Origin: Alphaproteobacteria bacterium
GTDB taxonomy: Bacteria; Pseudomonadota; Alphaproteobacteria; Rs-D84
Assembly (NCBI GenBank): GCA_031549365.1
Contig: JAVBPX010000012.1
Coordinates: forward strand, 1 to 20,782
DNA: 20,782 nt
Reading direction: 5' to 3'
Numbering within the stretch: position 1 is the stretch's first letter; every line of letters starts with the position of its first letter. The position numbers were made by a program, and so were the translations under genes. Below, in pieces: positions 4,542 through 20,782 of the stretch. Under the pieces are notes generated by a model that worked only from the letters and a program-made list of their open reading frames with translations, had not been told where the DNA came from and did not search any database.

Positions 4542-4666
4542 AAAACGTTTCAAAATCAGATGATTGGAAAGAATTTTTAAATTTTTTGGCCCGCAGTGTA
4601 TACAGACATACATAAGGGTCGAAAAATTTAAAAACTTGTTTTCAAGGGCTGATTTTCAAACGTTTT
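4542..4666. repeat. Palindromic element E1 (RPE-like), overlapping the surA stop codon
   Basis: 17/18 terminal inverted repeat aaaacgtttCaaaatcag / ctgattttCaaacgtttt; long inner stem; apical tgtat-N6-ataca. Confidence 0.85.
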
Positions 4667-5535
4667 TAATCCAATGCTTTGCGGTATTGTTCATCCTGTA
4701 TCGTAATAACAGCCTTTCTGCGTAACGATTTCAATTGCTGATCACCAATAAACATAGCATTTCTATACATCAATTGATTTTGAATATAATCCCGTAATTT
4801 TGGATATTCTTTCTGATTTTTTTTCTCACAAATATAAATGGATGATTTTGATTTAATCTTTGACATTTCTCCTGCTTTTAATGGGAAAATTTGACGACGA
4901 ATATTTTCATCCAAATCATATTCTGGCGCTGTAATTTCTTGGGCTGAAATTCCATTTTCACGGGCGGACGATTTCATCGTTTTACAACTGGCCTTATCCA
5001 ACTTGGAAACATTTTCATCTGTAACACCGGACAATCTTAAAAACGTAGTATCTATCGGCAATCCGTGCTTGTCTGATAATTTTGCCAATTCTTCATCAAT
5101 TTCTGAATCATTAACAACAATAGTTGGCATAACGGTTTTCATCAAAACATTCTGCCAAGACATCGAAGCGCGCAAAGCAAACATCAATTGATCTTTTTCT
5201 GCCGCCGTTTTTATATTCGCATCAAAAAAGCCTGCTGGCTTTTGCATCTGTTTTTCTGTATTTTTAATCTCGGCCTTAACATCTTTCTCGGACGGGACCA
5301 AACTAAAACTTTTTGCATGCTCAATTTTCAAAGTATCATTAACAATATTGTTTAACGCTCTAAAACGAATATCGGTCGCAGACTGCCCCTGTAACGACAT
5401 TAATTTAACCCGCGCGGTAATATCCAAATCGGTAATTGGATTCCCATTTGCAACAGCAACAATATGGGCTGCAAATGCAGAACATGGCAACATCATCAAA
5501 CTAAAAAGAATCAGCGGGCGAATAAGTTTTATCAT
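4666..5535 (-). CDS. surA: SurA-family periplasmic chaperone
   Basis: Signal peptide, IVAVANGNPITDLDITARVKL N-domain, C-terminal LKSLRRKAVI; directly after lptD. PPIase region looks degenerate. Confidence 0.8.
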   Translation of the reverse strand: MIKLIRPLILFSLMMLPCSAFAAHIVAVANGNPITDLDITARVKLMSLQGQSATDIRFRALNNIVNDTLKIEHAKSFSLVPSEKDVKAEIKNTEKQMQKPAGFFDANIKTAAEKDQLMFALRASMSWQNVLMKTVMPTIVVNDSEIDEELAKLSDKHGLPIDTTFLRLSGVTDENVSKLDKASCKTMKSSARENGISAQEITAPEYDLDENIRRQIFPLKAGEMSKIKSKSSIYICEKKNQKEYPKLRDYIQNQLMYRNAMFIGDQQLKSLRRKAVITIQDEQYRKALD

Positions 5536-7582
5536 TTATATCTCCATTAATTTTCAACGCAAACCGAAATTGGAATGTCTGATTTCCTTTAAAATCTCCC
5601 TTAACGGCGCGATCGTCCTTGTATAATACACCCAATGTATAACAAGGATGGTCGTATTGTACGCCTGAATACATCGTTTGTAAATAGTTATCCGAAATAT
5701 TATACCGCGCCCCTGCATAAACATTCCAACGTTTGGTAACATTCAAACCAAAACCGCCATCAATTTCCTGGGTACTGGTTTCGGTAATATACGCATCATC
5801 AAACTGTTTTGTTGAAATAAATCCAGCGCGAACATAATTTTTTCCATCACCCAACCTTGCTGTTGTTTCATTGTGCTGAACCGAAAAAGTGCTTTGATTT
5901 AATCTGAATCTATCATAAATTTGCAACCATTTTCCTGCGGACAAAACAACTCGCCCAACATAATCTGATGACCCTAAACGGAATCCAGAATTTTTGTCCA
6001 AATCCACCGGTTCATAAAAATCATATGCCTGACCAACAAAAACCTCTATGCTGTTTTTATTTGCATTATCAAAAGCGGTCCAAGAAACACCATAATCCAT
6101 ATACGATCCATGATCCCATAAATCATATCCTGAAAACCGCTGCTCTGAAAATATCGTTGTGTCATTAAATAAAGACCCCATTGAATCCTGATTAATGAAC
6201 GCAGTTTTTGTATTTCGATCAATAAATACAAACCGCGCAATTGGTTCTATCGTCTGTGTAATTTTTTCACCATACTTTACAAAAGGCCATTTCCACATAA
6301 CATACCCAGACGGCAAAAATCTATTCTTGGTCCCAGAATATGGTTCCAAATCATTTAATAAATCGGTCCCATTAAAATAATACATATCATACCGCGCAGC
6401 CGCAGATAATTCAACACGCTGTCCCAAAAATATAGTAAACGGAAACGTATATCTTGCCGACCCAATCGCACGAATGGACGAAGTATCGGAACCATGATAC
6501 GACAAACCTAAAACATCACCAAAAAACGATAAATAAGATTCCATAAACAATGGATCAGTCTGTGCGCGCGCATACACATTTGGAATTATATCCGCACGTG
6601 GAATTGATGCAACATTCATCGTTTTATCTTTAACGCGCAATTCCTGAAACGTATGCGCAGACATCCAAACATACGACCTCTCGGAATAGCCTTCTAACCT
6701 AGCGCTAGTATCCAAATACGGCTGATAATTATAAAATCCATATTCCTGCAAATATGTTTTATCAGATGTTCTATTTAACCCCAATAACAAACGGGAATAA
6801 GAACCCAATTCAATAACATCTGAATTATAAATATGCCACCTGTTTTCATGATCGCGATTATAAGTATACGAACCTGTTGTATTAAAACTTGAATGATCTG
6901 CATTTAATCTATGCTCGATTTGCAACAACGGATTATCTTTTGTGGCAACAGTTGTTGCAATCGTCATATCGTGATAATTTGAAAAATTCAGATATAACGG
7001 GATATCAATATGCGACCCTAATGCACTGGACGAACCAACGGTTGGAAATAATAATCCAGAACGACGCTTCACCGTCGGATCGGGATAAGTAAACCAAGGC
7101 AACCATAAAACCGGAACCTCATAAACATAAAACCAACCATGCGAAAAATACAAAGTTGATAAATCTTGTTCATGCCGAATACGTTTGGCAGAAATGGACC
7201 AAGCCTCAACATTATCACAATTTTTCTTATCCGCACATGCGGTATAGGTCAAATCATTCAATGTTGTACGATTACTCTCTCTAACAATTTCTTCTGCGGT
7301 AATACGAACTTGGGATGATAAATATATTTCAATATCATTAACACTGCCAACTGTTAAATCCCGATTTAAATTTGCATCCATTAATGTCAACGTCTGCCCA
7401 GTCTGTGTTTTAACAACCGTCTTTCCTTCTGTCCTTGCGGTCCCAGTTGTTGTATCAATAATTATTTTATCGGCTGTAACAGTTGACGGGGTTTTCGCAT
7501 TTGGCATAACAGCAAAAACAGGCTGAACAAAACATCCAACCATAAAAACTACCAAAAATAAATTCCACAACTTTGTACGCAT
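5501..7582 (-). CDS. lptD: LPS assembly protein LptD
   Basis: YTAC..C..WSISA, VPVLWLPWFTYPDPTVKRRSGLLFP, RFSGYD, SSDYVG and Y-x-x-x-C-Y motifs; lpt/surA context. Confidence 0.93.
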   Translation of the reverse strand: MRTKLWNLFLVVFMVGCFVQPVFAVMPNAKTPSTVTADKIIIDTTTGTARTEGKTVVKTQTGQTLTLMDANLNRDLTVGSVNDIEIYLSSQVRITAEEIVRESNRTTLNDLTYTACADKKNCDNVEAWSISAKRIRHEQDLSTLYFSHGWFYVYEVPVLWLPWFTYPDPTVKRRSGLLFPTVGSSSALGSHIDIPLYLNFSNYHDMTIATTVATKDNPLLQIEHRLNADHSSFNTTGSYTYNRDHENRWHIYNSDVIELGSYSRLLLGLNRTSDKTYLQEYGFYNYQPYLDTSARLEGYSERSYVWMSAHTFQELRVKDKTMNVASIPRADIIPNVYARAQTDPLFMESYLSFFGDVLGLSYHGSDTSSIRAIGSARYTFPFTIFLGQRVELSAAARYDMYYFNGTDLLNDLEPYSGTKNRFLPSGYVMWKWPFVKYGEKITQTIEPIARFVFIDRNTKTAFINQDSMGSLFNDTTIFSEQRFSGYDLWDHGSYMDYGVSWTAFDNANKNSIEVFVGQAYDFYEPVDLDKNSGFRLGSSDYVGRVVLSAGKWLQIYDRFRLNQSTFSVQHNETTARLGDGKNYVRAGFISTKQFDDAYITETSTQEIDGGFGLNVTKRWNVYAGARYNISDNYLQTMYSGVQYDHPCYTLGVLYKDDRAVKGDFKGNQTFQFRFALKINGDINDKTYSPADSF

Positions 7583-7583
7583 C

Positions 7584-8657
7584 TTATATATTCTTATCTC
7601 TGTATAATATTCCGATTAATCCAAAGAATAATACTAATTGTAAAAACCCGATTAAATATATTATTCGCATATCTCCATGCGCCATATTCAACATTGTCAT
7701 GTAACCCGCTTGAACCAATCCCATAACGCCAATTGTTATCGGAATCGCAATTGAAAAAGAACGCCGCAACGTGGATGTCTTTAATAAACCAATCAATGCA
7801 ACCAATGCTAAAATCACATCCATAAATGGCCCCAAAAATCTGTTACCAATTTCCGCCACAATATCAACTCGACGCTTTAACACCGGATCATTTCTAAATT
7901 CGTCAGAAATTAATAATTTGGTTGGCAGAGTACGAACCTTAAACTTCTTAACTTCGGCATCGCTACCCAAATTTAAATTCATTTCATACTCAGAAAAAGT
8001 CCCCAACGTTAAATTTTCAGTCTTGCTCTGAATTGCGCCGTTTTTCATCTCAATACTAACGCCATTTACTGTATGAACCAATTGCCCAGATTGCGCAGTA
8101 ATAATCGTCTGATTTTTTTTATCGCGCGCATCTTGAATAAATAAATTATATAAATGGTTTCCATTAACCTTTTCAACAAACACCACCATACCATTGCCCA
8201 ATTCAACAAACGAAGCCTCTTGTATTTTTAAATGCGCCAATCCGAAACGCAATTCCCACTGATAAGTATAAAACCGTTCTTGGGACATCGGAATTAACCA
8301 AATCGTCATCAAATAATGAATTATCATTAACGTGGTCGCCATAATAATCCCAGGCTTTGCAATCTGTACAGGCGATAATCCGGACGCCTGTAAAACTGGT
8401 ATCTCGCGGTCCCCAATCATCCGGTTATATACAAACATAATTGCGATAAAAATCAAAAAAGGCATAATAATTGAAACAATAAAAGGAATCATCATACTAG
8501 ACAATTTAACAAAAGCCCATAAACTGACGCCATATTTTATAATCATGTATAATAACGACAAAATTTGGGTCATCCAAGCCAACCCAGTTAAAATCAACGT
8601 CAACATGATAAAAATCAAGAACAATTGCTTTAAAAAATATCGATTTAAAATATTCAT
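7584..8657 (-). CDS. lptF: LPS export permease LptF/LptG family (LptF-like)
   Basis: MNILNRY start, three N-terminal TM helices, RMIGDREIPVLQASGLSP motif, periplasmic domain, three C-terminal TMs. Start placed at 8657 because the upstream in-frame region is the promoter. Confidence 0.85.
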   Translation of the reverse strand: MNILNRYFLKQLFLIFIMLTLILTGLAWMTQILSLLYMIIKYGVSLWAFVKLSSMMIPFIVSIIMPFLIFIAIMFVYNRMIGDREIPVLQASGLSPVQIAKPGIIMATTLMIIHYLMTIWLIPMSQERFYTYQWELRFGLAHLKIQEASFVELGNGMVVFVEKVNGNHLYNLFIQDARDKKNQTIITAQSGQLVHTVNGVSIEMKNGAIQSKTENLTLGTFSEYEMNLNLGSDAEVKKFKVRTLPTKLLISDEFRNDPVLKRRVDIVAEIGNRFLGPFMDVILALVALIGLLKTSTLRRSFSIAIPITIGVMGLVQAGYMTMLNMAHGDMRIIYLIGFLQLVLFFGLIGILYRDKNI

Positions 8658-8664
8658 GAAAAAC

Positions 8665-8692
8665 ATTATAACATGTGATTTTTCACTGTCCA
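8665..8692 (-). promoter_or_regulatory. Promoter implying a leaderless lptF transcript
   Basis: TGGACA, 16 nt, TATAAT with extended TG; 7 nt from the -10 box to ATG; no SD. Confidence 0.6.
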
Positions 8693-8743
8693 CTGTAATT
8701 TGCCCAAAACCCCACCAACATCCACACTAAAACCCCACCCTTC

Positions 8744-9336
8744 GTCCATCCCATGGCATAGCCCAGAGGATCCAGTAATAAACCCATTGCAACGCAATGT
8801 AATTGTCATTGCGAGCGCAGCGCGGCAATCTCATCCGCATAATACCCCATCATCCCTGGGGGCGAGGCAACGAAACCCGACAATTATTTGTCGCTGGTTG
8901 AGTGGTGCAGGGGAAAATAAAAACACTACCCATCTCGCCCCAACGGGGAGAGATAATAAAACATATGATCTTTGATCATCATGTTTTATAGAGAGGGGGA
9001 AATAAAAACAATAACCACAATTAAACCATCCCAAACCCTTGGTCATCCGGATCGCGTAGCCGAAAAAACCATTGCAACGCAATGTATATAGATCACAACA
9101 ATATTAAAAACCTCGCCCCTGGTGGGCGAGGCAACGAAACCCGACAATTATTTGTCGCTGGCTGAGTGGTGCAGGGGAAAATAAAAACACTACCCATCTC
9201 GCCCCTCCGGGGAGAGATAATAAAACATATGATCTTCGATCATCGTGTTTTATAGAGAGGGGGAAATAAAAACAATAACCACAATTAAACCATCCCAAAC
9301 CCTTGGTCATCCTGAGCGTAGCGAGAGGATCCAGTA
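8744..9336 (+). repeat. REP-like composite mosaic with ~264 bp tandem unit
   Basis: 8860-9048 is near-identical to 9124-9312. Modules GTCATTGCGAGCGCAGCGCGGCAATC (8805-8830), GTCATCC..GGATCCAG (9306-9334), CCTCGCCC..GGGCGAGG and CTCGCCCC..GGGGAGAG with inner hairpins. Confidence 0.92.
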
Positions 9337-9458
9337 AAACAAACGTTGCGACAGCAACTAAAATATTGACATGTCATCTCTCTGAATCACAACTCCGCAC
9401 CAATCCAAACAACACAAATAAAAATGCCCAGACATTCATCAGGACATAAACACAATCA

Positions 9459-9584
9459 AAACCATTCAAAACGTGCTGAATGGTCGTGTTTCCGAAATTT
9501 TTTGACCGCGCGCCAGCGTACGTATTGGTACGTGCCGCGGCAAAAAATGAGAAACGCGCCCAGACGGCGCGTTTTCAATGGTTT
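9459..9584. repeat. Palindromic element E2 (RPE-like), overlapping the OMP stop codon
   Basis: Terminal inverted repeat aaaccattCaaaacgtgc / gcgcgttttCaatggttt; apical cgtac-N6-gtacg. Confidence 0.85.
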
Positions 9585-10518
9585 AGAATCTAACTCTTAA
9601 TCCCATCATAAACATATTCGTATCATTCGTTTTCATGCTATAAAAATCCGAAGTATACTTTGGCAAATAAATGTATGAATGTTCAACATATACACCCAAA
9701 TATTTTGTGATGTCATATTCAAATCCCAAAATGGATTTTGCTGAAAATCCTGTTTTATCGGCGTATCCTGCTTCCCAATTTGCGACACCCAAACCAGCAC
9801 CCAAACGTAATGACAAATCGTCAATTACATATAAACCCCATACGAATTGTGCATATGCACCAAACAATGACGCATCTGCTTTTGAATCCTGAATATCAGC
9901 ACTTGCCTGATTCAACATCAATTCAAAATCATAATACCACAATTTTTCACCCAAAATATTGTCTTGGTACAATCTTGTTCCAATACCAGCATGAAAACCC
10001 AATTCTGGTTCAGCACGCAATCTTGTTTTTGTATCTCCAACTTCCTGGCTGAATGATCCTGTTGTTGTGGACAAACCGCCACGCACAAAAAATTTGCTGT
10101 ACAAATCTTTCCAACATGGATTTTTTTCGGATCCACACGTTGGTGCTTTTTCTTTAACAAGAACTGGTTTTGTAACAACTGGTTCTTTAACATAAACCAC
10201 TTTTGGTTCAACAACTGGCTGTGGTTGAACATAAACGATTTCTGGTTCAACTACACGTTCCACAGGTTTTACATAAATAACTTTCTTCGTAACAGGTTTT
10301 GAATAAACAACACGTGTTTCTGGTTTTGCATAAACAATGCGTGTTTCTGGTTGTGTTGAACGAACGCGCTTTGTATATGTTGATCCGTTAACGATATATT
10401 TACCGCCATTGAAATAATCAACCGATTCGTTTCCGCAACCATTGCATGCAACCGCGACATTCATGGCGGAAACGCTGCAAATCGCGCTAATTGCTAATGT
10501 TTTCAATATTTTTTTCAT
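9583..10518 (-). CDS. Outer-membrane beta-barrel protein with Pro/Val/Lys-rich N-terminal stalk
   Basis: Signal peptide, repeated (V/I)(V/I)Y-x-(K/Q)-(P/E) units, amphipathic strands (LGAGLGVA, LGFEYDI, LGVYVEHSY), terminal MGLRVRF; GGGAG RBS. Confidence 0.85.
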   Translation of the reverse strand: MKKILKTLAISAICSVSAMNVAVACNGCGNESVDYFNGGKYIVNGSTYTKRVRSTQPETRIVYAKPETRVVYSKPVTKKVIYVKPVERVVEPEIVYVQPQPVVEPKVVYVKEPVVTKPVLVKEKAPTCGSEKNPCWKDLYSKFFVRGGLSTTTGSFSQEVGDTKTRLRAEPELGFHAGIGTRLYQDNILGEKLWYYDFELMLNQASADIQDSKADASLFGAYAQFVWGLYVIDDLSLRLGAGLGVANWEAGYADKTGFSAKSILGFEYDITKYLGVYVEHSYIYLPKYTSDFYSMKTNDTNMFMMGLRVRF

Positions 10519-10566
10519 AATAAACTCCCTTAACTGATTGTGGGATTTCTCCCGTTGTCAATATTC

Positions 10567-10594
10567 AGATTAAACGATAATTCTCGTTTGTCAA
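10567..10594 (-). promoter_or_regulatory. Putative promoter of the OMP gene with palindromic spacer
   Basis: TTGACA, 16 nt, TAATCT; palindrome aaacga-gaatta-tcgttt (10572-10589); 5' UTR hairpin ggga-GAAA-tccc. Confidence 0.55.
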
Positions 10595-10793
10595 GAACTT
10601 TTAAAAACAAATAATAACAAACTGTCTCGCATACAAATATTTTCCACACCGGACTTAAACAACCTCCATTGCCCCGGCACAGTCTTTGCCCACTTAACGA
10701 ACCTCATTAAATTTATTCCTACATTTTATTTTGAAAAATAAAATACTCGGCAATTCCGCCGGATTAAACACTCCCTTTAAGCACAAAAATTTA

Positions 10794-10845
10794 AAAAACG
10801 TTCAGAATGTGATGAATGTAAAGAAACGCCCAATTTTTCAAGCCC
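10794..10845. repeat. Probable left-arm remnant of the palindromic element family
   Basis: aaaacgttcagaatgtgatgaatgtaaagaa..aattttt..gccc resembles the left arms of E1 and E4; no right arm. Confidence 0.45.
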
Positions 10846-10858
10846 AACCTCGTCCTAC

Positions 10859-10988
10859 AAAAAATAATCAAAACGTAGTAGGCACAAAGAATTTATCCCA
10901 TTTTTAGGACCGCGGTGTACATAGTGGTACATAAGGTTCTAAAAATGGGATGAACTTGTTCATAGATGATGCGTTTTGATTATTTTTT
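10859..10988. repeat. Palindromic element E3 (RPE-like), covering the lipoprotein stop and last codons
   Basis: aaaaaataatcaaaacgta / tgcgttttgattatttttt; inner tttatcccatttttaggacc / ggttctaaaaatgggatgaa; apical tgtac-N6-gtaca. Confidence 0.85.
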
Positions 10989-11345
10989 CACAGATGGCAT
11001 GATTTGTCCGGGCGCAACCGCCAATTTCGAACAATCATAAACATTCGCATTTAAAACATAGGCGCGTTCTGGCCCCAATATTGCCCATTCATTTGGACGT
11101 GTACGTTGTGCAACAATCCAATATGTGTCGCCTGGGTTTGTTTGATTTATAATTTTATTTTCCAAATAACGTTTGGCATCTGTCGAATCATAAACAGAAA
11201 CCTCGGTCTCGATTGAATATAAAAACAAACAGTTTAATGGCTCTCCATCAACCTGATTTAATGTTTCGCTACCATTTTCATTTTTAATTTGCCCCATACA
11301 TGCGGTCAATACCGCAACCATGGATAACGTAATTATTTTTTTCAT
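10980..11345 (-). CDS. Putative lipoprotein (possibly DUF4156-like)
   Basis: AAGGAG 7 nt before ATG 11345; MKKIITLSMVAVLTAC lipobox; paired Cys (NCLFL...VYDC). Confidence 0.8.
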   Translation of the reverse strand: MKKIITLSMVAVLTACMGQIKNENGSETLNQVDGEPLNCLFLYSIETEVSVYDSTDAKRYLENKIINQTNPGDTYWIVAQRTRPNEWAILGPERAYVLNANVYDCSKLAVAPGQIMPSVKK

Positions 11346-11357
11346 GAACATTCTCCT

Positions 11358-12218
11358 TTATTCGACAATTTCATAATTTGATGAATCTTCAAACAATTTT
11401 TTCAAGACTTCGTTATTCAAAGCATGCGATCCTTTGTAACTCTCAACTTTGGCATCCATGAAATACCCGGATGTCAACATATCTCCAACCACATCAATGA
11501 TTTTATGTCGAACAAATTCATCCTTGTAACGCAACCCCCAAGGCTCAGGATTAATAACTTTTTCATCATCAATCGCAATAACATTTGTTTCGTTTGCACC
11601 ACGTGCCATGCCCATTTTTTTCAATTGTTCAAATTCGTCAAAACGTCCAAACGTACGACAATTTGAAATGGCCTCAAAACTTTCTTTATCAATATGTGTT
11701 TCGAACGATTGATCTCCAATTAATGGAAAAGGATAAATCAATCGCGCCATAACATCCAAACCATTTTCATTTGGTAATAATTTAACATACGAATCGCCTG
11801 CCGCAACCATAACTTCTTTCAACACTCTTAATCGCTTGCGCTCTGCTTTTTGCTCAACAGCTTCTGCCTCTTCCAGCATTTCGACAAAACTTTCTGCACA
11901 TCCATCCATAATTGGTGTTTCTGGTCCATCAATTTCAATCGTTGCATTATCAATTCCGACAACATATAACGCAGCCATAATATGCTCTATCGTTTGAACA
12001 TGTTCGCCCTTTAAATCTCCAATAGTAGTGTTTCGCAAATGAGTCCCACCAACATTGTCATATATCGCAGGAATTGGCATTCCATTCATATCCACGCGAT
12101 GAAATATAATCCCATGATTTGCATCGGATGGATTAATAACCATCGTAACATCCGCACCCGAATGCAACGCAACACCTTTGATAACTACTGGTTCTTTTAA
12201 TGTTCTCTGCTTAACCAT
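11358..12218 (-). CDS. lpxC: UDP-3-O-acyl-GlcNAc deacetylase
   Basis: QRTLK, GVALHSG, TIEHIMAAL, EFVRHKIIDVVGD and GSHALN motifs. Confidence 0.96.
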   Translation of the reverse strand: MVKQRTLKEPVVIKGVALHSGADVTMVINPSDANHGIIFHRVDMNGMPIPAIYDNVGGTHLRNTTIGDLKGEHVQTIEHIMAALYVVGIDNATIEIDGPETPIMDGCAESFVEMLEEAEAVEQKAERKRLRVLKEVMVAAGDSYVKLLPNENGLDVMARLIYPFPLIGDQSFETHIDKESFEAISNCRTFGRFDEFEQLKKMGMARGANETNVIAIDDEKVINPEPWGLRYKDEFVRHKIIDVVGDMLTSGYFMDAKVESYKGSHALNNEVLKKLFEDSSNYEIVE

Positions 12219-13347
12219 TTTTTAAAATCCTTTTTCCCCATCTTGTGTGCATCCATAACCATTCGCTTGGGTTTTTTCGAATGACCTGTTCCATAATATC
12301 GTTTACTTCCTGCATTCCGTTAATTTCATCACGTACCGCATCATCGGTGTGTGGAACTTTAACAATCTTATCAAATACAATCTTGTGATAAACTCCGTGC
12401 GTACGCTCAACATGGGCCACCAAAATATCGCAATTAAATTTTCGTGCTAATCTTGTAATGCCGGTCGAAGTCATAGCGGGTTTACCAAAAAACGTTAACT
12501 TTTCGCCTTCATCCGCACGATGATCAGGCGTAATCGCAACAACCCCACCATCCTGTAAACGACGTATAATCATGCGAGCCTGTCCCTTTGGAATAAATTC
12601 AATCTTGGCCAAACCGTCGCCAAAATTTTCCTGCAAAGCTTTGTCCATCAACGGATTATTTGGGAATCTATAAACAATGCCAGACGTCTTTTGAAACTTC
12701 TGAAATGGAATTGCAAACAAACCCATATAACCATTGTGCATCATAGCAACAAAATAAGGAGCACTCTTATTCGCTTCATCCAACAATTTTTTATTTTCAT
12801 ATTTTATATACTTATCTTGATGCTTCATGTACGTTCTGGAATGTAAACCTTCGCCAAATGCACGGCCCCAGTTTTCCCACAAATTTCCTAAAAATTCTTT
12901 GTTGTTTAATTCTGGCATAACATACTCTAAATTTCTCTGTGCAATTTTGTTTGCATTTGCCAGCGGGGCCAAATATCTCATAATCTTTCCAAAAAACCAA
13001 CTGGTCCAAGTTAATGGCAACAACTTAAAAAATCCTGCAAAAACTTTGTATCCAATAAATTCCATTGGATGCATGAACCACTTTTTAAACCAAGTCCTTC
13101 TATGCTTTTCCAAATAAATTCGTTCTGGAATAATGGCAGCCCAAACACCAAAACAAATATACATGACTGCTATTGCTAAAACAATTTTATGCGGGATTGG
13201 AAAAACATAGTCCAAAAAAAACAGAGCCCAAAACGCCAAATCCATCAAAACAATGCGCCTATCTTTTGCAATCATAATCCACAGAGAAACACCCATAGCC
13301 GCCCAAGGCGCAGTTCTCAACAAAAACATAAAAATCACTGAAATCAT
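12211..13347 (-). CDS. lpxL: Lipid A late acyltransferase (LpxL/HtrB family) with N-terminal membrane extension
   Basis: IAQRNL, YRFPNNP, PDH, FFGKPA and PSEWLWMHTRW motifs; follows lpxK. Confidence 0.82.
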   Translation of the reverse strand: MISVIFMFLLRTAPWAAMGVSLWIMIAKDRRIVLMDLAFWALFFLDYVFPIPHKIVLAIAVMYICFGVWAAIIPERIYLEKHRRTWFKKWFMHPMEFIGYKVFAGFFKLLPLTWTSWFFGKIMRYLAPLANANKIAQRNLEYVMPELNNKEFLGNLWENWGRAFGEGLHSRTYMKHQDKYIKYENKKLLDEANKSAPYFVAMMHNGYMGLFAIPFQKFQKTSGIVYRFPNNPLMDKALQENFGDGLAKIEFIPKGQARMIIRRLQDGGVVAITPDHRADEGEKLTFFGKPAMTSTGITRLARKFNCDILVAHVERTHGVYHKIVFDKIVKVPHTDDAVRDEINGMQEVNDIMEQVIRKNPSEWLWMHTRWGKRILKNG

Positions 13348-14291
13348 TTTAAAATCCTATCATCTAACCAAATATAAAATTTATCTTCCAAAATCATTTC
13401 CATCGGGACCATAGTAATTCGCGACTGCCACTCTGGCGACAAACGAACCCAATCCTTTTCGGTTGTAACCAATTCCGCTCCTTGTTCCTTTGCGACCATT
13501 TCCAATGATAACAATTCTGAATCTTTAAACAAATGATGATCCGGAAATCCACGTGTGGTCAAACTGTTAATTTTTTTGGAATCCAACGCGCGAAAAAACT
13601 TATTCGGATATCCAATCCCAGCAAACGCAACCACCGCTCCGGACAATCCTGGATCATCTAATTTCGGAGCCCCCATAAACACAGGTATTTTTTTAATTCT
13701 CTGAATTTGTTTTTTCAAACCATGGCGATCTCGCCCAACTATGATAACGGCATCCGCACGTGAAATTCCATCACTCAACGGCTCGCGCAATGGCCCTGCT
13801 GGCAGCATAAATCCATTCCCCAATCCCATATTTCCATCGAATACCAAAATGGACACATCTTTGTATAATCCAGGATTTTGAAAACCATCATCCATAACAA
13901 TAACCTTGGCGCCACAATTTTTCGCCATTTTCGCGGCTTCTTTTTTAGATCGTCCAACAAATACAGATAACGTACTTGATAACATCTTGGCCTCATCCGA
14001 AGCCTCATCCGCAGTATGATACTGTTCAACTCGACCTGAAATTTTTGCACGATACCCACACGCAACCACAGCAGACCCATAAACATATTTTGAAATTGCC
14101 CGCACAATCGGTGTTTTTCCAACACCTCCTGCAAAAATATTTCCAACACAAATTATTGGAATATTAACACGCTCCATATTTTTTGACTTGGACCAAAAAA
14201 CGATCCTGTGCCCGATATAATATAATATTGAAAACGGCAGCAAGGCCCATGCTTTCAAGGAACGATGTAAAAACCAACTTGGTGTTTTCAT
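13344..14291 (-). CDS. lpxK: Tetraacyldisaccharide 4'-kinase
   Basis: PIICVGNIFAGGVGKTP, VMDDGFQN, LPAGPLREP, FAGIG, FPDHH and TTEKDWVRL motifs. Confidence 0.96.
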   Translation of the reverse strand: MKTPSWFLHRSLKAWALLPFSILYYIGHRIVFWSKSKNMERVNIPIICVGNIFAGGVGKTPIVRAISKYVYGSAVVACGYRAKISGRVEQYHTADEASDEAKMLSSTLSVFVGRSKKEAAKMAKNCGAKVIVMDDGFQNPGLYKDVSILVFDGNMGLGNGFMLPAGPLREPLSDGISRADAVIIVGRDRHGLKKQIQRIKKIPVFMGAPKLDDPGLSGAVVAFAGIGYPNKFFRALDSKKINSLTTRGFPDHHLFKDSELLSLEMVAKEQGAELVTTEKDWVRLSPEWQSRITMVPMEMILEDKFYIWLDDRILK

Positions 14292-15046
14292 TACAAACTC
14301 CTAATCCTCTTGGCGCCAACAGCCGCAGGCTCAATTTTTTCCAACCCGCACTCGGCATCCAAATCCTGCATTTGTTTGATCATATCCGCTTCCAGTTTAT
14401 CATGCAGTTTTTTAATATCCTCTTCGGATACAGAACGATCAACAAACAACGGCGGCAACGCGCGATAAATTAATTTGGAAAACGGCTTTGCAATTAAATA
14501 TCTATCCCATGCCCGCTTCATTTGATTTCCGCGAGTCCCAGAATACGAAACGGCCACAATAGGCGCCCCAGTAATCTTTGCAAAATAAAAAATACTATCG
14601 GACAAACGCATGCGTGGTCCTTTTGGTCCATCGGGCGTCAAACACAGGGTTTCACCCTCGCGCAGAGCCCTAATACCTTGTTTTAACGCATCCAACCCAC
14701 CCTCGGTCGACGAACCATAAATTGGTTTTAATCCAAATAACTTCTGAACCTTTGCCATCAACTGCCCATCTCGATGCTTTGACGCCATGGCATAGCCATA
14801 AAAACCAAACTTAACAACAATCGGGGATAACATCATGGATCTCGAATGCCAAAAAATAATAATTAATGGCTTTCCTTTAAAATCACGAACATAATCCGCG
14901 CCTCGAAATTCTTTTTTGCTTGTATAATAAACCAACCAAATCGCGACATACATAAATGACGCAATAATCCACTGAACGAATGACAATGACGCAACCCGCT
15001 TCATTAACCTAGTCAATGGTTTAAATTTTCTTTTTTTCTTTACCAT
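14291..15046 (-). CDS. DUF374 / lysophospholipid acyltransferase family protein
   Basis: FWH, ASKHRDG, GSSTEGG, TPDGPKGP and WDRYLIAKPF motifs. Start set at ATG 15046 (MVKKKRK), downstream of the -10 box. Confidence 0.88.
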   Translation of the reverse strand: MVKKKRKFKPLTRLMKRVASLSFVQWIIASFMYVAIWLVYYTSKKEFRGADYVRDFKGKPLIIIFWHSRSMMLSPIVVKFGFYGYAMASKHRDGQLMAKVQKLFGLKPIYGSSTEGGLDALKQGIRALREGETLCLTPDGPKGPRMRLSDSIFYFAKITGAPIVAVSYSGTRGNQMKRAWDRYLIAKPFSKLIYRALPPLFVDRSVSEEDIKKLHDKLEADMIKQMQDLDAECGLEKIEPAAVGAKRIRSL

Positions 15047-15052
15047 GCGCCT

Positions 15053-15061
15053 ATTATACCA
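15053..15061 (-). promoter_or_regulatory. Extended -10 promoter implying a leaderless DUF374-lpxK-lpxL-lpxC transcript
   Basis: TGgTATAAT ending 6 nt before ATG 15046; no SD. Confidence 0.6.
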
Positions 15062-15152
15062 ACAATTTTGCAATTTTCCACAAAATCCTGTCCTGGGACA
15101 AACCAACATCCCAATAACCAAAAAAAATCGCGTCAGAATCACACATACACAG

Positions 15153-15278
15153 AAAACATTTCAAAATGCGATGATTGGATGGGTTCTTTTTATTTCCGAG
15201 GGGCCGAGCATATATAAACATACGTAATGTTCCCGATGGAAATGAAAAAACGCGCCCAAGGGCGCATTTTCGACTATG
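15153..15278. repeat. Palindromic element E4 (RPE-like), right end disrupted
   Basis: aaaacatttCaaaatgcg-atga-ttgg ... ccaa-ggg-cgcattttC; same ATGA/GGG internal loop as E1; degenerate apical hairpin. Confidence 0.75.
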
Positions 15279-17986: not shown

Positions 17987-18122
17987 ATAAATCAAAAACT
18001 GCAAAAAACCAATATGCCCTGGTCCAATGTGTTGACTGGTCAGAATTATTTTATTTTTTGGCCGCACGCCATCGCATCGATTAAATCGTGTCAGAATTAT
18101 CCTGTTTTCAAGAGCGTGATTA

Positions 18123-20381: not shown

Positions 20382-20782
20382 GTCATCCTGAACTTGTTTC
20401 AAGACCTTTTATTACGTCATTGCGAGCGCAGCGCGGCAATCTTTATCTCGGCGAAACAACGTGCAGACGGATCATTGCAATTAAAACCCGACAATTATTT
20501 GTCGTGGTTGAGTGGTGCGGGGGAAAATAAAAACACTACCCATCTCGCCCCAACGGGGAGAGATCATAAAACATATGATCTTCGATCATCATGTTTTATA
20601 GAGAGGGGGAAATAAAAACAATAACCACAATTAAACCATCCCAAACCCTTGGTCATCCGTATCGCATAGCCGAGAGGATCCAGTAAAAAACCATTGCAAC
20701 GCAATGTATATAGATCACAACAATATTAAAAACCTCGCCCCTGGTGGGCGAGGCAACAAAACCCGACAATTATTTGTCGTGG
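20382..20782 (+). repeat. REP-like composite mosaic (~275 bp unit), truncated at window end
   Basis: Same modules and linkers as 8805-9336 and 1-139; cccgacaattatttgtcg at 20487 and 20762; extra GTCATCCTGAACTTGTTTCAAGACCT unit at 20382. Confidence 0.92.

Follow-up and report, generated by a model that had tools for sequence, protein, structure and literature searches.

Palindromic Elements at Gene Ends in the Analyzed Contig

The contig JAVBPX010000012.1 (assembly GCA_031549365.1) of an alphaproteobacterium from the lineage Rs-D84 is 20,782 nt long, and this whole stretch is referred to below as the window. It carries four full copies, E1–E4, of a long palindromic repeat, three of which take in the stop codon of the preceding gene. 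They belong to a dispersed family that keeps its pairing by compensatory changes, docks on gene 3′ ends and follows the replication strand in its orientation. The assembly comprises 911 kb in 15 contigs, with a G+C content of 39%, a rated completeness of 97.6% and a contamination of 0.67%; its contig C13 is the window, and the source run is labeled as an invertebrate gut metagenome. By its LpxC protein, the genome belongs with uncultured alphaproteobacteria that have small genomes, and the closest records are metagenome-assembled genomes (MAGs) with 49–60% identity. Genes were taken from our own crude calls of open reading frames (ORFs).

All four hairpins proposed in the original prediction were recovered in place, both by nhmmer (4542–4662, 9458–9581, 10860–10979 and 15153–15273; E-values from 3e-26 to 2e-17) and by a covariance model with scores of 80–121 bits. 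Each is read on the minus strand, which is the strand of the adjoining genes. E1 (4542–4668; nhmmer E-value 3e-26, covariance model score 121 bits) is a full copy without a GC-rich local terminator, and its gene-side end takes in the TAA codon (4666–4668) of a SurA-like gene (4666–5535) located after lptD. E2 (9458–9585) is a full copy with a local terminator in its gene-side arm, an intrinsic-terminator-like hairpin with a T-run at 9552–9574 of the minus strand that was found by two terminator scans and lies about 10 nt past the stop. The gene-side end of E2 takes in the TAA codon (9583–9585) of a β-barrel outer membrane protein gene (9583–10518). The Pfam matches of the two upstream genes, SurA_N for E1 and OMP_b-brl for E2, are both under the curated cut-off. 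In E3 (10860–10988), the TAA codon (10980–10982) of a 123-aa gene that follows lpxC sits within the terminal inverted repeat, which extends 6 nt further into the two last lysine codons. The predicted overlap of E1–E3 with stop codons is therefore confirmed for each of the three.

E4 (15153–15277) is a full copy of the terminator-carrying type located between bamA and a DUF374 gene; its local terminator-like hairpin (15246–15270, minus strand) was identified by a terminator scan and by reading of the sequence. E4 is not docked: it begins 115 nt past the stop of bamA (15393) and ends 10 nt ahead of the start of the next gene (15142). When the gene-sense strand was folded as RNA and compared with shuffled sequences, z-scores of −5.8, −5.9 and −7.9 were obtained for E1, E2 and E3, respectively. 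The score of E4 is only −1.8, and 10 of 200 shuffles fold equally well.

The predicted half copy next to E3 (10795–10845, minus strand) has a weak nhmmer match (E-value 0.005, model positions 2–52) and no fold of its own (z-score +2.0). It lies distal to E3 and corresponds to the gene-distal half of an older copy; the same arrangement of a full copy followed by a distal half-remnant is seen at other loci. One further segment (18026–18065, minus strand) is an uncertain candidate for a short copy fragment, with an nhmmer E-value of 0.029 as its only evidence.

Structure and Covariation of the Element

The structural analysis is based on an alignment of 42 copies in gene orientation, from which the truncated copies L032 and L033 had been dropped beforehand. 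The element is an imperfect palindrome of 124–132 bp. On the gene strand, its first half consists of an A-run, 3–6 variable bases, the hexamer TGAAAA, the gene-side arm and a conserved apical hairpin. The second half begins with the far arm, a degenerate mirror of the gene-side arm, and continues with TTTTGA, the bases complementary to the variable ones and a T-run. Every aligned copy ends in such a T-run past the long stem. The inverted repeat runs through the entire element and 8–10 nt past the conserved hexamer; it often takes in the T of the TAA codon (TAAAA...TTTTA) and does not continue into the coding sequence. The far arm was earlier suggested to mirror the last two codons in E3. This mirror is real in E3, and copying of the host's last codons was rejected as a general property of the family, as the repeat ends 8–10 nt outside the hexamer in most copies.

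A structure of 53 base pairs was drawn from single-sequence folds of the same copies, a procedure that inflates the percentage of paired cells (79% versus 65% after shuffling) and leaves the compensatory counts unaffected. Two-sided changes occur in 42 of the 53 pairs. The alignment contains 362 compensatory cells compared to 145 ± 11 in shuffled alignments, none of 500 shuffles being as high, and slid registers give 64–140. The co-variation originally claimed from the window copies thus holds for the family, including the compensatory changes in the apical hairpin, where two pairs are U-A in 24–25 copies and C-G in 16. The reported C·C mismatch, which is G·G on the gene strand, is likewise a family feature. 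The G of the hexamer stands opposite the G of TTTTGA in 36 of the 42 copies, and A·G, G·A or A·A is found in the other 6. A standard pair never occurs at this position, so that the column is a purine-purine mismatch in all 42 aligned copies.

A canonical GC-rich terminator hairpin with a T-run is present in the gene-side arm of 18 of the 42 copies, starting about 10 nt past the stop, and 24 copies lack it; in the antisense orientation, a canonical terminator is found in 2 of 42. A few variants of this hairpin recur at unrelated loci, and hence they belong to the element. The copies appear as mosaics of modules: identity in the outer stem is hardly correlated with identity in the interior (r = 0.03–0.22), while the two arms vary together (r = 0.74).

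Genomic Distribution of the Family

In the genome scan that had been suggested for the window hairpins, iterated nhmmer searches identified 67 copies (E ≤ 1e-5), 52 of them near full length. A covariance model built on the 42 aligned copies recovers the nhmmer set, and 90 non-overlapping nhmmer matches are found at E ≤ 1. The family makes up 0.9% of the genome. Its density is 10–22 copies per 100 kb on contigs C3, C4, C8, C10, C11, C12 and C13, and 0–1.5 copies per 100 kb on C14, C7, C6, C2 and C9. The nearest-neighbor identity among copies reaches 0.95 at most, with a median of 0.80, and pairs of up to 95% identity adjoin unrelated genes. Most of the remnants are halves from the far side, located past a full copy that is docked.

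At C11:38100–38620, a 133-nt composite unit occurs three times in tandem beyond a docked full copy; the unit combines the far end of one element with the centre-to-far half of another. Serial insertion as the origin of tandem arrays was considered and rejected, the C11 array being a single composite unit duplicated in tandem.

The genome has two compartments. Contigs with strong GC skew (|0.17–0.26|) hold nearly all elements and end in an unrelated repeat of 264 nt, and the contigs C14, C7, C6 and C2 (about 380 kb together) have weak skew and 0–1.5 elements per 100 kb. The units of this second repeat family are about 264 nt long. In the window it occupies positions 8694–9458, as two tandem units with 96% identity and a raised depth in the DNA run, and it is also found at 53–142 and 20416–20779. 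It recurs with 85–99% identity at the ends of C3, C4, C5, C8, C9, C10, C11, C12 and C15, and evidently the assembly breaks because of it.

Docking on the 3′ Ends of Genes

A copy was considered docked if its gene-side end lies from −30 to +12 nt relative to the stop of an incoming ORF of at least 100 codons. By this definition 41 of the 67 copies are docked, one of the docking ORFs being a spurious one that overlies tRNA-Leu. Both neighbors are known for 65 copies, of which 39 are docked. If each copy is placed and oriented at random in the intergenic gap that it occupies, 5.6 docked copies are expected, and the highest value among 200,000 simulations is 16. For 1 of the 65 copies, the opposite end is found within 12 nt of a gene. 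Tabulation of distances to the stop, the check proposed with the original prediction, thus yields a clearly non-random placement.

The gene-side end is intact in 54 copies, and a long ORF ends there in 38. The stop is located at the terminus, 7–11 nt ahead of the hexamer, in 24 copies (22 TAA and 2 TGA); it lies 3–5 nt ahead of the hexamer in 5 copies, is the TGA of the hexamer itself in another 5, and falls 14–17 nt inside the element in 4. Four copies sit at the equivalent position on the 3′ CCA of a tRNA gene, and one abuts the 5′ end of a tRNA-Ala gene on the opposite strand. In this and related genomes, the junctions follow TAA, TGA, TAG, CCA or other bases. The TAA codon is therefore not recognized as such, since docking includes the four CCA ends as well as TGA and TAG stops. 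Stop-codon targeting, one of two options originally considered, stands in the sense that docking is far beyond chance; the target is gene 3′ boundaries in general.

The region C15:76373–77171 holds two elements in the midst of three opposite-strand tRNA genes (Ala, His, Ala). One of them is flush with the 5′ end of tRNA-Ala, and the other is located beside an apparent 5′ tRNA half that is called neither by ARAGORN nor by Rfam.

Docked proteins end at normal C-termini; that of AccB, for instance, looks normal against the E. coli protein. Three of the 67 copies overlap a crude ORF call of at least 100 aa, and none was seen to split a recognizable gene. Plain terminators of this genome also tend to adjoin stop codons, 60 of 239 being within 5 nt of the stop, and the elements are docked about three times as often. 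Part of the docking thus reflects how 3′ ends are built in this lineage.

Two other origins of the junctions were considered and rejected. Random insertion into ORF ends with the stop supplied by the element disagrees with the unequal use of the three frames and with the end residue of RpoD, which matches that of the orthologs. The outer stem does not look like a split pre-existing terminator, as the outer variable stems are short, AT-rich and common to copies at unrelated loci. Empty mini-hairpins made of an A-run, TGA and a T-run are not enriched (4 found, 0–2 in shuffles). No convincing case of a native terminator beyond the far end was found for the 38 docked copies; a lenient scan flags 18 of them, mostly with weak G-T stems or pieces of other copies.

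Orientation Relative to Replication

The strongest regularity of the family, new here and missed in the original prediction, is that its orientation is locked to the replication strand. We inferred the direction of replication from GC skew in the 15-contig draft assembly. Within each contig, all copies share one orientation. Of the 67 copies, 63 have their gene-sense form on the local G-rich strand; where |skew| exceeds 0.1, this is true of all 61 of 61. This polarity includes 23 undocked copies and persists on contigs with near-balanced gene strands (C1, 50/50; C11, 26/23). Docked elements follow 39 of 439 leading-strand genes versus 2 of 297 lagging-strand genes (Fisher p = 2e-7); the docked genes are nearly all leading-strand because the orientation follows the local skew. 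On the usual reading of GC skew, which we assume here, the strand that carries the stop followed by the element is the lagging-strand template.

Related Genomes and Orthologous Sites

Model matches were found in 15 of 40 related genomes (1–13 matches each), and 8 of 150 other families of alphaproteobacteria yielded weak matches; for G187, one of these eight, only its count of 8 was used. The genomes G002, G015 and G028 stand for two other genera and one other family. Their matches number 25, and each starts on the stop of an ORF of at least 80 codons; 23 of the 25 are consistent with the skew of the surrounding 20 kb, the skew being weak in two of these genomes.

Orthologous loci were compared for empty sites, as had also been proposed earlier. 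Among 30 rpoD loci, the element follows the stop codon in the studied genome (G000) only, with the end residue of the protein unchanged, and many relatives have at this place a plain terminator composed of an A-run, a stem and a T-run that starts on the stop codon. In the closest MAG, the TAA of the E3 gene's ortholog is likewise fused to a terminator, one of 30 nt. The spacer between tRNA-Gly and tRNA-Tyr is 2–15 nt long in 9 relatives; in G000, G022 and G045, it is filled by an element flush with the CCA. G022 and G045 keep the old spacer on the far side of the element. Their copies belong to different subfamilies, within one genus that also has empty sites. The element is mobile, because orthologous sites in relatives are empty or carry plain stop-flush terminators, and it has been gained and lost lineage by lineage. 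Of the two options of the original prediction, a mobile element or a domesticated 3′-end structure, mobility is thus upheld by the rpoD and tRNA sites, and docking can partly be ascribed to host 3′-end construction.

In the same spacer, G018 has a look-alike hairpin that is not matched by the profile model. A different conserved hairpin of about 40 nt is located directly after the CCA of tRNA-Gly at the loci L124, L129, L138 and L142 of relatives. This suggests that the tRNA-Gly site attracts several repeat families.

Other Features of the Window

In an Rfam search of the window, only a tRNA scored above the threshold. A weak sub-threshold match to Trp_leader was observed at 1745–1866, and an inverted repeat with 30-nt arms at 1818–1881 overlaps the end of an ORF (1456–1869). 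A blastn search of a plasmid collection with E2 as the query gave no match. Logan contigs from both DNA and RNA runs break inside the repeats, and no joint among them removes a whole element; a joint between 15178 and 15252 has one side of 20 nt and probably derives from another copy. One contig from an RNA library spans 4621–5464, running from surA past its stop to about 45 nt into E1; nothing is concluded from it, given the repeat-broken assembly and possible carry-over of DNA.

Possible Insertion Mechanism and Alternative Explanations

Our preferred interpretation, to which we give about even odds, is that of a non-autonomous, terminator-carrying palindromic mobile element that inserts strand-specifically at replication forks. 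The element would move as folded single-stranded DNA at the fork. Its insertion point would be in the lagging-strand template, immediately 3′ to the final functional base of a co-directional gene. The responsible enzyme may no longer be encoded by this genome, or may be present and unrecognized. The maintained hairpin and the unvarying purine-purine mismatch are proposed as its recognition features. We also propose that the element is tolerated because it brings its own terminator-like hairpin, which could let it replace a plain stop-flush terminator; the copies would then decay slowly, swap modules and pile up in head-to-tail arrays. The facts to be explained together are the hairpin with its mismatch, the docking, the polarity, the gain at orthologous sites, and the lack of both a target duplication and a transposase; fork-coupled single-strand insertion covers most of them.

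Several observations count against this interpretation. No match to Y1/HUH transposases (PF01797) was found in this 97.6%-complete assembly, and such transposases are encoded in 2 of 121 genomes of the order. Likewise, DDE_Tnp_1 and rve gave no match in this genome, other transposase families not having been searched. The palindromic architecture is unlike that of the IS200/IS605 elements IS608 and ISDra2, which have separate left and right subterminal hairpins and lack a long terminal inverted repeat. The gene-sense strand, presumed to be the active one, folds less well than its complement, with RNA parameters (mean −40.6 versus −50.4 kcal/mol; complement better in 39 of 42 copies) as well as with DNA parameters (−25.3 versus −28.9; 36 of 42 copies); the complement forms more G-U pairs. 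Stop codons and CCA ends have no target sequence in common. Four of the 67 copies disagree with the skew, all of them in weak-skew regions, and the direction of replication is itself deduced from GC skew in a draft assembly. Finally, the copies are old, with a median nearest-neighbor identity of 0.80, which gives no sign of ongoing movement.

A real, if minority, possibility is that the elements are domesticated 3′-end modules, kept by the host as terminators or mRNA 3′ stabilizers, with docking being the terminator construction of a compact genome. Their orientation would then arise because only copies with the weaker-folding strand on the lagging-strand template escape hairpin-driven deletion. 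This explanation accounts for the asymmetry of folding and for the terminator cargo, which is canonical in the sense arm of less than half of the copies and practically confined to it. The better-folding strand does sit on the presumed leading-strand template, and plain terminators flush with stops are common in this lineage, as seen in the genome-wide count, the rpoD orthologs and the L053 hairpin; the family also persists across genera. For the bottom strands that attC sites have in sedentary integrons, the same placement of the better folder on the leading-strand template was read as limiting folding (PMC5371416). However, domestication does not explain why lagging-strand genes, which also need terminators, are spared, nor why one copy splits the tRNA-Gly/tRNA-Tyr pair, a poor place for a terminator. 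The 24 copies without a canonical terminator, the gain of sites lineage by lineage in place of conservation, and a docking frequency about threefold that of plain terminators also argue against it.

The other explanations invoke known mobile systems. An ordinary miniature inverted-repeat transposable element (MITE), moved by a cut-and-paste DDE transposase (e.g., an IS630-like one with a TA target) and brought into its docked orientation by later purifying selection, would have the size and palindromic form that are typical of such repeats (PMC10969869). Part of the copies have the terminal inverted repeat TAAAA...TTTTA, and TA is present at both extremes in 11 of 32. Nevertheless, we regard a MITE as unlikely. 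Whatever the offset, no more than 3 of 32 copies have a target duplication of at least 3 nt, and the empty tRNA-Gly spacer has no TA. Replication polarity is not expected from cut-and-paste of double strands, but the skew is followed by 61 of 61 copies; moreover, the two DDE-type profiles searched are without matches. Membership in the Rickettsia palindromic element (RPE) family, to whose core the original prediction likened that of the hairpins, seems very improbable. It would fit the similar length, the palindromic form, the small-genome alphaproteobacterial host, the labels of LpxC relatives (Rickettsiales or Alphaproteobacteria MAGs) and the weak matches in other alphaproteobacterial families; the in-frame insertion into ORFs that marks RPEs is not seen here. 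Least probable of all are attC-like sites of an integron-type or Xer-type tyrosine recombinase. In their favor, the elements keep their structure while the sequence varies, have an unvarying unpaired position, lie directly after ORFs, and show strand-dependent folding and replication polarity, features that recall attC sites (PMC5371416). Three tyrosine recombinases are encoded in the genome, but two are of XerC/D size, and the third (C15:48241–49329, 362 aa), which only just passes the Pfam cut-off, resembles a phage-type integrase on our reading of its sequence. The flanks of the elements are scattered housekeeping genes and tRNAs in place of a cassette array, and no conserved AAC...GTT core is visible at the ends, as judged by eye only.

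Returning to fork-coupled insertion, a bolder version of it would make the family a new class, namely a single-strand hairpin element without a Y1 transposase of its own that is pasted at forks exactly behind the last functional base (stop codon or tRNA CCA) of co-directional genes. We consider this doubtful and offer it as speculation. Insertion could be cued by forks that pause at gene ends on meeting transcription complexes, and the purine-purine mismatch could be a recognition mark for a host-encoded or still unknown enzyme. If true, native terminators would be overwritten throughout a whole order of gut alphaproteobacteria with small genomes.

The usual explanation for small palindromic repeats close to gene ends is tolerance, meaning that they persist where they are harmless. 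With its base-exact, one-sided and completely replication-polar placement, the family described here is a clean counter-example. Its recurrence across genera and the independent insertions in the same 5-nt tRNA spacer make site choice directly testable. It also places mobile DNA at the terminator positions of core genes (rpoD, accB, infB and surA) in a reduced genome, and for annotation, it means that about 40 gene ends here have a stop codon fused to a repeat.

Comparison with Known Repeats

A full-text literature search, with subscription journals largely outside its reach, gave no description of stop-flush, replication-polar palindromic repeats. The terminal inverted repeats resemble those of classical MITEs; a target-site duplication and a parent insertion sequence were not found, DDE_Tnp_1 and rve being the domains searched for the latter. 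RPEs are described as palindromic repeats of 100–150 bp in small alphaproteobacterial genomes that insert in frame within ORFs (PMC10969869). In contrast, the elements studied here lie outside ORFs on the 3′ boundary, a comparison by described habit. Integron attC sites are imperfect palindromes after ORFs, recognized by structure with unpaired bases, and have unequal stability of the two strands and a replication orientation bias (PMC5371416). Our elements share with them a similar length, the position directly after ORFs, the strand-unequal stability and the orientation bias. Unlike attC sites, they are dispersed behind core genes, with no cassette array and no IntI.

Strand-specific insertion has a precedent in IS608, for which orientation tied to the lagging-strand template, insertion 3′ of the target without duplication and hairpin recognition on one strand are described (PMC5027513). 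The family has the same polarity, as far as skew indicates the direction of replication here, and likewise no target duplication. In contrast to IS200/IS605 elements, which have a defined target of 4–5 nt, it forms a single long palindrome with no common target word and no TnpA. Repetitive extragenic palindromes (REP) and their doublets (REPINs) are hairpin pairs of about 100 bp that occur extragenically after genes and keep their stems by compensatory changes, and a single-strand HUH mechanism has been proposed for them (see also PMC2817692). To our knowledge, strict replication polarity has not been reported for REPINs. Maintenance of the hairpin by compensatory change, observed here in 42 of 53 pairs, is common to both; unlike REP/REPIN sequences, which are mobilized by the Y1 transposase RAYT, our elements have no RAYT/Y1 gene in their genome, such genes being rare in the order, and no conserved 5′ tetranucleotide of the GTAG type was seen.

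The closest described repeat is the pneumococcal SPRITE, reported in 2011 as a small AT-rich repeat with AAAA/TTTT ends, a terminator-like hairpin and no detectable target duplication (PMC3049150). It is enriched near the 3′ ends of coding sequences (CDSs), its co-option as a terminator was proposed, and 63% of its 30 copies are on the leading strand (PMC3049150). The likeness lies in the AAAA/TTTT ends, the absence of duplication and the terminator-like hairpin near CDS 3′ ends, where both have a hairpin and T-run in gene orientation; in our family the terminators are predicted from sequence. In contrast to SPRITE, 61 of 61 copies here follow the skew, the 125-bp element is palindromic over its full length and has an apical hairpin and an unvarying mismatch, docking is base-exact and includes tRNA ends, and the host is an alphaproteobacterium, a different phylum; the two were compared by description only. 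The family is best read as closest to SPRITE and REPIN-type repeats, with no demonstrated place among RPEs. Selfish, terminator-like repeats are a known kind in bacteria, and this family exemplifies them with unusual strictness.

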